Shown: one piece after another, positions 1 to 1,502 of the stretch
How positions within the stretch are numbered: the stretch's first letter is position 1
Layout of the letters: the number at the start of each line of letters is the position of its first letter
From: an uncultured Eubacteriales bacterium
GTDB lineage: Bacteria > Acidobacteriota > Aminicenantia > Aminicenantales > UBA8522
Assembly: GCA_964550915.1 (NCBI GenBank)
Contig: CAZKBY010000001.1
Location: 1-36,384, forward strand
Reading direction: 5' to 3'
Length of the DNA stretch: 36,384 bases
Notes under the pieces: generated by a model
Databases searched by the model: none
Told to the model about the DNA's origin: nothing
The model's input: the letters and a program-made list of their open reading frames with translations, nothing else
Position numbers and translations under genes: made by a program

Positions 1-1502
1 GGCCACAGCACGAAGTCGGCCGCATGGCCGCCGAATTCCAGCGCCGGCGCAACTACTGCCTGATGCGGCTTAACGCCATCCCCAACATATCCTGCTTCAA
101 ACCCCATGGCGCTTTTTACCTTTTCCCGAATTTTTCTGCTTATTACGAGAAAGAAGCGGGCGGCGTCCTCATCAGGAATTCCTACGGACTGGCCTATTAT
201 TTGCTCAAGGAAGCAAAAGTGGCCATCGTGCCGGGCGATTCATTCGGTGCCGATAACCATATCCGCCTTTCCTATGCGACCTCGATGGAAAACCTGGAAA
301 AAGGGATGGACCGGATTATCGAGGCGGTCGCGAGACTCAAGACGCCGAAGAAAGTCAAGCGCGTTGCGCTCAATAACGCGGCTACACGGGTGAAGAAAGC
401 CGTGCCGGTTGACTCTTCGCTCCCGGTCAAGATGCGCGACGCTTTAGTGACCGAGATGGAGGGCCATCTCGTTGCGGAGAACTATTACGAATGGAACGCC
501 AATATTTCGGGTGTCGTCGTCCAGCTCAGGACCAACGTCTCCCATCTCTATGATTTTTGGGTGGAAAACTGGTACCCCGCCCAGCTCGAAGCAGACCTGG
601 AGCCCCACGGTATCATCTACGCCGTAGACGGGATCGCCGGGCGCGAGCCAAGGGCGTTTTACAACTCCGAGACGAAGACGGGCGTCCTCGTCAACACGGA
701 CAATTACGGCCCCCTGCGAAGCCTCGCCCTCGGTTTGGTCATGGATGTCACCGAAAGGCTTTACGGTGCGCATGCCGTGCGCGGTATGGCCGCTGCGGCA
801 GACGCCGGCGGGAAAGGACTGATCTTGGTCGGACCGCCCGGGACGCGCAAGACCGAGCTTTTCTTCGAGCTCCTTGAGGACAAGCGGTTTAAAATCCAGG
901 CCAATGATATAATCTTCGTCCGCTACGCTGGCGGAAAAGCTCAAGCAGACTGCGTCGAGAGAAAATTTTACATGCCGACGAATACCGTCGAGAGCTTCGC
1001 CCGCCTGGCGCCTCTTTTTGATTCAAGCAAGTGCGAAAACGTCATCACTCACAAAGAAGACTGCCAGGACGCGGCTTGCCTCAGGCTCGACGACTGCCGT
1101 CTCGACCGGGGCTCACCCTTCTGCTACAAAGCTTCAAAAGAAGCGCACGCCATGCTTGATCCATACTGGATCGGCGGGAAAACGGCCCATGCCAAGCGGA
1201 CGGCCCTGAGCTGGGTTTTCCTTCTCCGGTATGACACCTCATCGCCGGCCGTAGTCCAGGTGGAAAAAGAAGAAGCCCTGCGGATTCTTGAGTCTGGCGA
1301 ACCTCTTGGGCTAAAGAAGAGCCTCTCCCCGGCCAAACCCCAGCCTTACTACAACCCTCATTTGTTGGTGACGACCGAAGAACGACTGGAGCTCCAGAAG
1401 GCTTTTTTCAGCCGGCTGCTTGACGTTGCCACGTTCTATCTCTTCAACAGCGGAGTGGCTGGAGCAGAGGAGATCAAGAAAATCGTGTTGGGCGAGGAAT
1501 AA
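1..1502 (+). CDS. 5'-partial class I/II (AspC-type) aminotransferase C-terminus fused in frame to an HprK/PEPCK-like P-loop domain
   Basis: Frame 3 is open from the window edge, so the gene is 5'-partial. The first ~105 codons are the normal C-terminal end of a PLP aminotransferase (KPHGAFYLFPN, VAIVPGDSFG, HIRLSYATS). The frame continues ~385 codons. It contains HAVRG..GKGLILVGPPGTRKTELFFELL..ANDIIFV (nt ~771-920; P-loop at 831-857) and five Cys within 31 aa (nt 1032-1124). Confidence 0.7.
   Translation, partial: PQHEVGRMAAEFQRRRNYCLMRLNAIPNISCFKPHGAFYLFPNFSAYYEKEAGGVLIRNSYGLAYYLLKEAKVAIVPGDSFGADNHIRLSYATSMENLEKGMDRIIEAVARLKTPKKVKRVALNNAATRVKKAVPVDSSLPVKMRDALVTEMEGHLVAENYYEWNANISGVVVQLRTNVSHLYDFWVENWYPAQLEADLEPHGIIYAVDGIAGREPRAFYNSETKTGVLVNTDNYGPLRSLALGLVMDVTERLYGAHAVRGMAAAADAGGKGLILVGPPGTRKTELFFELLEDKRFKIQANDIIFVRYAGGKAQADCVERKFYMPTNTVESFARLAPLFDSSKCENVITHKEDCQDAACLRLDDCRLDRGSPFCYKASKEAHAMLDPYWIGGKTAHAKRTALSWVFLLRYDTSSPAVVQVEKEEALRILESGEPLGLKKSLSPAKPQPYYNPHLLVTTEERLELQKAFFSRLLDVATFYLFNSGVAGAEEIKKIVLGEE

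Follow-up and report, generated by a model that had tools for sequence, protein, structure and literature searches.

An aspartate aminotransferase fused to a predicted miniature phosphoenolpyruvate carboxykinase-fold pseudo-enzyme domain in Aminicenantia

Introduction

Oxaloacetate is an unstable metabolite at the junction of amino-acid catabolism, the tricarboxylic acid (TCA) cycle and gluconeogenesis. Class Ib aspartate/prephenate aminotransferases (PDB: 5WMH, 1J32, 1BJW; NF004769) ordinarily end at ~400 amino acids (aa). ATP-dependent phosphoenolpyruvate carboxykinase (PEPCK; PckA, EC 4.1.1.49, PF01293; PDB: 1AQ2, 1OEN, 1II2, 1J3B, 1YGG) is a two-lobed enzyme of ~540 residues that also handles oxaloacetate, as both partners of the fusion described here would. 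In MaeB malic enzymes, a fused inactive phosphotransacetylase (PTA) domain is needed for allosteric control (PMC8100219). Here, we analyze a window of 36,384 nucleotides (nt), positions 1 to 36,384 of contig CAZKBY010000001.1 (assembly GCA_964550915.1), from a bacterium of the class Aminicenantia, in which the gene of a class-I aspartate aminotransferase (AspAT) does not end where such genes usually do but continues in frame into a second domain.

Aminicenantes are widespread, uncultured subsurface bacteria. We identify the second domain as a PEPCK-superfamily pseudo-enzyme module in an undescribed architecture, and as a member of an unnamed family to which we refer as mini-PEPCK. A full-text literature search returned no paper describing the fusion, the pseudo-PEPCK domain or the long archaeal PEPCKs that we found to be related to it.

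Results

The aminotransferase and its extension are encoded by a single gene

The fusion is encoded at nt 3–1502 of the window on the plus strand, in a single open frame of 499 codons that closes with a TAA stop codon (nt 1500–1502, plus strand). From the N to the C terminus, the frame comprises 113 AspAT residues, a Lys-rich linker and a 375-residue domain. The frame is open at its 5' end because the window begins at a contig end (G000:C1:1), and it represents the 3' two-thirds of one gene of ~782 codons, whose full product has ~782 aa. The 5' half lies on another contig of the same genome (G000:C257:3-863, minus strand) and encodes the first 287 residues, starting with MISEKANQIG; 283 N-terminal residues are absent from the window. 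The end of C257 and the start of the window (nt 1–16) overlap by 16 nt, ggccacagcacgaagt, and the break between the two contigs inside the aminotransferase gene is an assembler artefact and no gene boundary.

The source genome is a fragmented metagenome-assembled genome (MAG) of 317 contigs that is 89% complete, and the end of a contig interrupts the gene, which leaves room for the view that the fusion is an assembly or gene-calling artefact, with two genes joined by a missed stop or a frameshift at the junction. A homolog search with the extension alone recovered >1000 proteins, nearly all of ~780 aa, with PF00155 in front and the same junction. These come independently from many samples and assemblers, closed genomes included, and the few short homologs begin within the aminotransferase and are fragments. 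Across a class-wide sample of 121 genomes, the fusion was matched in 46/49 genomes of the window's order, where one open frame always crosses the junction, and in 2/3 genomes of family f10; on contigs that hold the complete order-level ortholog, the frame measures ~770–810 aa. The linker sequence is also conserved. Given the >1000 homologs of ~780 aa and the single-frame orthologs, a missed stop or frameshift is excluded for practical purposes, and we regard the artefact explanation as having a negligible chance of being correct. The fusion is a real, widely conserved, single gene. The initial annotation, made from the sequence of the window, had pointed to the open extension and had proposed comparing fused orthologs with separate genes; the extension is borne out, with about 386 further codons after residue ~113 before the TAA.

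The fusion was not found in 68 sampled genomes of families f7, f8, f9, f11 and f12. In five genomes of fusion-less families, the best aminotransferase homolog is a frame of 391–427 aa. Separately, one ortholog (G045:C69:43723-44856) contains a single in-frame TAG within the mini-PEPCK domain, possibly a sequencing error or a sign of a pseudogene.

The extension is predicted to adopt a complete PEPCK fold

The 386-residue extension has no Pfam, NCBIfam or PDB sequence match except a chance-level match to a P-loop, and the window protein has no PF01293, PEPCK NCBIfam or PF07475 match, even at E≤10 for the PF01293 and PEPCK models. An AlphaFold2 (AF2) model of residues 114–499, computed with 70 fused and stand-alone homologs as input, reached a pLDDT of 90.4 and a pTM of 0.88. 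In a Foldseek search of this model against the PDB, the top 35 matches are ATP-PEPCKs (E~1e-16, TMq 0.64–0.74, about 400 aligned columns), followed by GTP-PEPCKs (E~1e-11). Profile alignment with hhalign places the family on E. coli PckA with 93.9% probability over 332 columns, domain residues 23–386 corresponding to PckA residues 93–467; the first ~90 residues of PckA, with the R65 loop, and the adenine loop around R449 have no equivalent in the extension. By these models, the extension comprises the entire PEPCK fold in miniature, both lobes included, spanning residues 124–499 of the partial protein (nt 372–1499, plus strand).

The mini domain and PckA share, besides the two-lobe fold, the Lys and Thr of the P-loop, D269, the ENV strand and an N-[TS]-G motif. 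The mini domain differs from PckA in its size (about 375 against ~540 residues), in lacking a Pfam match, in an additional insertion with four to five cysteines, in its position behind an aminotransferase, and in the substitutions Y207N, K212R, K213S, H232R, G253R/K/N, D268N, K288P and R333H.

The similarity to HPr kinase/phosphorylase (HprK/P; PF07475; PDB: 1JB1, 1KO7) is of a different extent. The segment G-x-G-h-L-h-x-G-x-x-G-x-x-K-[ST]-E...[DN]D is common to both but covers only ~60 residues, and HprK/P lacks the PEPCK N-terminal lobe that the mini domain has. No HPr kinase chain is present among the top 50 Foldseek matches in the PDB, sequence matches to HprK are restricted to the P-loop segment, and no HPr-related context was seen. 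An HPr-kinase identity was rejected on these grounds. The initial annotation had described an HprK/PEPCK-like P-loop domain and had called for profile and structure searches of the extension. The superfamily assignment holds, with Foldseek and hhalign recovering both lobes of a PEPCK-like fold, and the HPr-kinase part of the label falls away. The motif it had singled out, GKGLILVGPPGTRKTELFFELLEDKRFKIQANDIIFV, is present, with the P-loop at nt 831–857 and the ND pair at nt 903–908. The spacing it gave for the segment in front, HAVRG-x12, needs correction: between HAVRG and GKGL lie 8 residues (MAAAADAG).

The active site is remodelled but conserved

Ten PckA catalytic positions were mapped through hhalign and counted in 120 stand-alone relatives, described below, and in 113 fused proteins. 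Most of the substrate and transfer residues have been replaced. Y207 is Tyr in all 120 stand-alone proteins, whereas the fused proteins have Asn in 101, Tyr in 5 and other residues in 7; K212 is Lys in 120 against Arg in 113; K288 is Arg in 119 and Lys in 1 stand-alone protein, against Pro in 106 and Ala in 7 fused ones; and R333 is Arg in 120, against His in 91 and other residues in 22. In the window protein these four positions are N, R, P and H, and the R65 region has no counterpart. Among the Mn2+ ligands, K213 is Ser in both groups (120 and 113), H232 is His in 120 stand-alone and Arg in 113 fused proteins, and D269 is Asp in 120 stand-alone proteins and Asp in 107 or Glu in 6 fused ones. 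The ligand set K213/H232/D269 thus reads S240/R260/D302 in the window protein, where R239-S240 (nt 717–722, plus strand) corresponds to K212-K213, the former a substrate contact and the latter a Mn2+ ligand, and R260 lies at nt 780–782 (plus strand).

In the nucleotide-binding core, the remodelled P-loop GPPGTRKTE (nt 831–857, plus strand) aligns with G248-T256 of PckA, GLSGTGKTT. K254 is Lys in all 120 and all 113 proteins, and T255 is Thr in 63 and Ser in 57 stand-alone proteins and Thr in all 113 fused ones, so that K283 and T284 of the window protein are invariant. The Gly before the Lys (G253), present in all 120 stand-alone proteins, is replaced in the fused form (Arg in 52, Lys in 49, Asn in 8, Gly in 4). 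N301-D302 (nt 903–908, plus strand) corresponds to D268-D269, which is DD in 120/120 stand-alone proteins; D268 is Asn in 109 and Ser in 4 of the fused proteins. A canonical kinase-1a P-loop followed by a kinase-2 motif is accordingly not found, the sequence being GPPGTRKT (with R, K or N before the Lys in 109/113) and ND in place of DD. Overall, seven of the ten examined positions hold other, conserved residues in the fused form, while the P-loop Lys and Thr and D269 are kept. When orthologs were drawn directly from the genomes of seven families, 44/44 had K212R, H232R and a retained K254.

Pairwise comparisons give a mean identity of 73% in the mini domain and 79% in the aminotransferase domain. 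Since the replacements are fixed and the conservation is near the level of the aminotransferase, the domain appears to have been repurposed and not to be decaying. The substitutions suggest that the fused domain is not a working PEPCK and would no longer catalyze the PEPCK reaction.

A cysteine cluster, C-x9-C-x4-C-x5-C-x8-C, forms an insertion that follows the ENV strand and precedes the site equivalent to PckA R333, exactly at nt 1032–1124 (plus strand) as the initial annotation had it. Its cysteines C2–C5 are invariant in 113/113 fused homologs, as well as in all 43 aligned AspAT-mini fusions, and C1 is present in 111/113. The insertion is missing from 50/120 stand-alone relatives, and its region is modelled by AF2 with a lower pLDDT of 73–78. 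The pattern probably reflects a structural Cys4 metal site, with Zn as the putative metal.

The fused domain belongs to a wider mini-PEPCK family

Exhaustive phmmer and profile searches identified a family of stand-alone proteins of 355–415 aa that match the fused domain over their full length at 30–42% identity, with E down to 1e-66. Their hosts include Thermoplasmatota, Nitrososphaerota, Methanosarcinales, Halobacteria, Omnitrophota, Chloroflexota, Deltaproteobacteria and others, and the proteins (P0138, P0129, P0130, P0135, P0140, P0150 and ~120 more) are all annotated as hypothetical. Their family matches are limited to weak ones to PEPCK, HprK or ScmC models, including sub-threshold matches to Hpr_kinase_C and HprK_rel_A; those to PF27840 (ScmC) and to HprK-related NCBIfam models are all confined to the P-loop and were set aside. 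Searches with the profile of the stand-alone family reach T. cruzi PEPCK (E=2e-8) as well as residues 192–463 of E. coli PckA. Stand-alone and fused forms are similar in size and share an N-terminal lobe motif, WNAxINGV..L.TN..HL.DFW..NW, of which H68, F72, W73, N76 and W77 are invariant in 70 sequences of the family; some stand-alone members also have the Cys insertion. The stand-alone proteins keep Y207, K212, H232, GTGK[ST], DD, Arg at K288, and R333 (120/120 or 119/120), all of which the fused clade replaces in whole or in part. Because every examined PckA catalytic position except K213 (Ser) is kept, this uncharacterised family looks like a compact, catalytically competent enzyme. In the stand-alone gene neighborhoods examined (L003, L005 and L007 among them), we found no conserved partner and no adjacent aminotransferase gene.

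A second kind of fusion places the module in front of a true PEPCK. In P0145 (899 aa), an N-terminal mini module is followed by a PEPCK whose NF006821 score of 416 bits exceeds the cut-off. A search with this N-terminal module returned 88 clusters (P0145 and P0389–P0475) of ~880–910-aa proteins, a few of them shorter or partial, from Hod-, Hel-, Loki- and Freyarchaeota, Bathyarchaeia, Altiarchaeota and a few bacteria, all annotated as plain PEPCK. The modules of these long (~890 aa) Asgard and Bathyarchaeia PEPCKs are remodelled like the AspAT-fused domain, with K212R and H232R, and their P-loop is variably destroyed (GSGIN, GAGKY, GRGVS, DGGRT, SENDIA). They differ from the AspAT-fused domain in their position, N-terminal to an NF006821-type PEPCK, and in lacking the Cys insertion, and only their first ~220 residues align. 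Next in the ranking of that search come further AspAT-mini fusions of about 780–817 aa, with source names that include Latescibacteria and Firmicutes, and several of them have a GVGRG P-loop in which both Lys and Thr are lost.

In a tree from a quick search, rooted with true PEPCK cores as the outgroup, the mini family is monophyletic (SH-aLRT 99) with the stand-alone forms basal. The AspAT-fused domains group together without exception (SH-aLRT 99), and their closest sister is the clade of PEPCK-fused modules, with moderate support (SH-aLRT 87). The topology gives moderate support to the view that the fused domain descends from the stand-alone mini-PEPCK family as a derived accessory branch.

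Two further groups of sequences were noted around the family. P0201 (754 aa), a mini-PEPCK relative, contains an intein (Intein_splicing, E=1.5e-16) that starts about 15 residues past its P-loop-like segment. A family of ~555–625 aa (P0175, P0182, P0189, P0196, G043:C10:180586-181170 and G043:C7:4571-5155) matches only the first half of mini-PEPCK and has an HprK-like P-loop.

The aminotransferase part is intact and its linker is flexible

At nt 3–341 (plus strand), the window encodes the C-terminal 113 residues of a class-I (subgroup Ib-like) AspAT. PF00155 (Aminotran_1_2) matches residues 4–105 over profile positions 271–361 of 361 (E=2.8e-11, 43.6 bits against a cut-off of 19.7), and the PDB aspartate/prephenate aminotransferases 5wmi, 1j32 and 1bjw align to residues 5–113; the aminotransferase thus ends where the initial annotation placed it. 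The window part includes the conserved Arg of IRLSYATS, which aligns with IRISYATS of 5wmi, and this residue, R88, is invariant. The N-terminal half on C257 contains NPSNPTG, ADEIY and the pyridoxal phosphate (PLP)-lysine motif SKSYSMTGWR, and full-length homologs carry PF00155. The N-terminal 395 residues of the fusion are a complete homolog of the class Ib enzymes, down to the PLP-Lys and substrate-Arg motifs, and the fusion continues beyond the point at which those enzymes end. The best NCBIfam model on P0002, a homolog with 94% identity, is NF004769 (aspartate transaminase), which matches over its full length with 439.5 bits; as this is below the equivalog cut-off of 617, the specificity for aspartate and oxaloacetate is putative. 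The gene encodes an intact class-I aminotransferase that, as an aspartate aminotransferase, would produce or use oxaloacetate.

The linker, TPKKVKRVAL, is Lys-rich and predicted to be flexible (nt 342–371, plus strand; its 3' boundary is uncertain). In the full-length AF2 model of P0002, two folded domains are connected by a disordered segment, with a pLDDT <50 for residues 399–415 and a pTM of 0.55, and no fixed inter-domain orientation is therefore predicted.

PEPCK genes accompany the fusion in some families

In a closed Aminicenantes genome, the fusion gene is followed after 109 nt by a gene in the same orientation for a 610-aa PEPCK (P0388). On NF006821 this protein reaches 285 bits; it shares 40% identity with the PEPCK part of P0145, and its motifs GTDYMGEDKKG, LHSG, GLTATGKST, QDD, VKT and NGR are intact. 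A divergent ATP-type PEPCK like P0388, of ~615–640 aa, lies directly downstream of the fusion and in the same orientation in 13/13 sampled genomes of the class with a strong match, which are 12/13 of family f4 plus G017 of family f10. One f15 genome also carries a divergent ATP-type PEPCK, the position of the fusion there being outside the adjacency count, and G043 has two much weaker ATP-type matches on other contigs. A Latescibacteria genome and one other lineage have a PEPCK_ATP gene, encoding 613–622 aa, in divergent orientation upstream of the fusion and the flotillin gene that precedes it.

The families of the class are divided by their type of PEPCK. In f4, the ATP type adjoins the fusion and a GTP type is hardly ever present; families f1, f2, f3, f5 and f6 have a GTP-PEPCK elsewhere in the genome and no ATP type save two weak matches in one f1 genome; and most fusion-less families (f7, f8 and f11) have canonical PckA. 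This distribution looks like serial non-orthologous displacement. The genome of the window belongs to family f1; the genome search found no ATP-type PEPCK in it, and a GTP-PEPCK is present on contig C8. The idea that the fusion could be the only PEPCK of the organism was rejected in view of this canonical GTP-PEPCK and of the replaced catalytic residues.

To see whether the mini domain evolves faster in lineages without the adjacent ATP-type PEPCK, we also compared its divergence with that of the aminotransferase. The ratio, a weak test given that related genomes are not independent, is 1.25–1.3 in f4 and f10, where the PEPCK neighbor is present, and likewise in f1 and f6, where it is absent, and 1.6–2.4 in f2, f3 and f5.

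A flotillin gene precedes the fusion

In 7/7 contexts examined, the fusion is preceded at a distance of 3–30 nt by a same-strand Band_7/flotillin gene encoding 467–490 aa. These represent several lineages, among them a Latescibacteria genome and contig C257 of this genome (894–2303, minus strand; L015). The upstream flotillin has an N-terminal membrane helix. The adjacency suggests an operon and perhaps a role in membrane organization. Downstream of the fusion, the window contains gmhA-like (SIS) and plsC-like genes on the opposite strand.

Discussion

Given its fold and its altered active site, we lean, with modest confidence, towards the fused domain being a non-catalytic accessory module at the oxaloacetate node, acting as a pseudo-enzyme partner or a sensor. 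The flexible linker would tether the domain to a dimeric aminotransferase. An Arg-rich remnant cleft may bind an anionic ligand such as oxaloacetate, phosphoenolpyruvate (PEP) or a nucleotide, and the domain may also, or instead, pair with a true PEPCK; in either case it could couple or regulate the interconversion of aspartate and oxaloacetate by the aminotransferase with that of oxaloacetate and PEP. Both the ligand and the partner named here are candidates. A sensor or regulator role is likelier in this genome, as no ATP-type PEPCK neighbors the fusion and a GTP-PEPCK is encoded elsewhere. MaeB offers a parallel, in that an enzyme of the PEP-pyruvate-oxaloacetate node is likewise joined to an inactive copy of a neighboring pathway enzyme. 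This is a functional analogy only: the folds are unrelated to those of the fusion, and the regulatory role is experimentally shown for MaeB and proposed here. The initial annotation had offered a degenerate regulatory domain as one option, which comes close to the accessory module.

Several observations weigh against a non-catalytic accessory module. The P-loop Lys and Thr and D269 (as D or E) are strictly kept in Aminicenantia, and many charged residues do not vary anywhere in the fusion clade, among them ERK, ENV, DPxW, R680 and D692 of P0002; a new catalytic activity is therefore possible. The genome of the window and most families of the order lack an adjacent ATP-type PEPCK, and the domain is still constrained, so its function does not strictly depend on that partner. 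The divergence ratio does not separate lineages with and without a PEPCK neighbor, and the archaeal mini-PEPCK fusion genes examined (L024 and L025) have neither a conserved partner nor an aminotransferase as a neighbor.

An enzyme with new chemistry would make use of the retained residues: a metal-independent or differently liganded phosphotransferase or carboxy-lyase could act on the keto-acid product of the aminotransferase through the P-loop Lys and Thr, D302 and the new arginines. That K283 and T284 do not vary in Aminicenantia, where position 302 holds nothing but D or E, that the replacement residues are fixed and not drifting, that the domain is conserved nearly as well as the aminotransferase, and that the stand-alone relatives look catalytically competent would all be in keeping with such an activity. 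Elsewhere in the same monophyletic clade, however, the P-loop reads GVGRG, GTGRK or NVKKE, with Lys and/or Thr lost and with the architecture and the flotillin unchanged. That the P-loop Lys and Thr are not kept throughout the AspAT-fusion clade speaks against phosphotransfer as a conserved function. The Mn2+ ligands K213, H232 and D269 correspond to S, R and D, and neither the adenine loop of PckA (R449 region) nor its R65 lobe has a counterpart. We consider new chemistry improbable. The proposal of the initial annotation that the module is a kinase acting on the amino or keto acid substrate of its own aminotransferase is not supported, given seven of ten catalytic positions replaced and a P-loop without Lys and Thr (GVGRG) in other fusion lineages.

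A docking function is a sub-case of the accessory module, and one that we hold to be conceivable but doubtful. Here, the domain would form a paralogue-style heterodimer with a true PEPCK while tethered to the aminotransferase dimer, so that labile oxaloacetate is passed on in an aspartate-to-oxaloacetate-to-PEP metabolon, perhaps organized on the upstream flotillin. The module occurs in cis with PEPCK in the 88 archaeal and bacterial clusters, where the often destroyed P-loop indicates that nucleotide binding is not its conserved role; a PEPCK gene adjoins the module in three different arrangements; the linker is flexible; and the flotillin gene is found at 3–30 nt in every context examined, this genome included. 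Yet this genome and families f1, f2, f3, f5 and f6 retain the domain without that type of PEPCK, and docking alone leaves the invariant residues of the remnant cleft unexplained. Lineages such as this one have lost the adjacent PEPCK and kept the domain, which speaks against the two being obligate partners. In its boldest form, which we think rather unlikely, mini-PEPCK would be a dedicated coupling module that joins AspAT to PEPCK, in trans in Aminicenantes and Latescibacteria and in cis in the Asgard and Bathyarchaeia PEPCKs, with the always-adjacent flotillin organizing a membrane-associated aspartate-to-oxaloacetate-to-PEP metabolon. If true, substrate hand-over at the oxaloacetate node would be genetically hard-wired.

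The fusion also exposes gaps in annotation: about 375 residues without a family assignment, long archaeal PEPCKs named as ordinary ones, and a stand-alone family without an assigned function. In most of one order of Aminicenantia, an enzyme that would interconvert aspartate and oxaloacetate carries, as a permanent fusion partner, a rebuilt copy of PEPCK, which turns oxaloacetate into PEP; this could give a clean experimental handle on the long-debated channelling of oxaloacetate. Should the accessory module prove to be a sensor or a docking device, it would represent a new regulatory principle for the oxaloacetate node.

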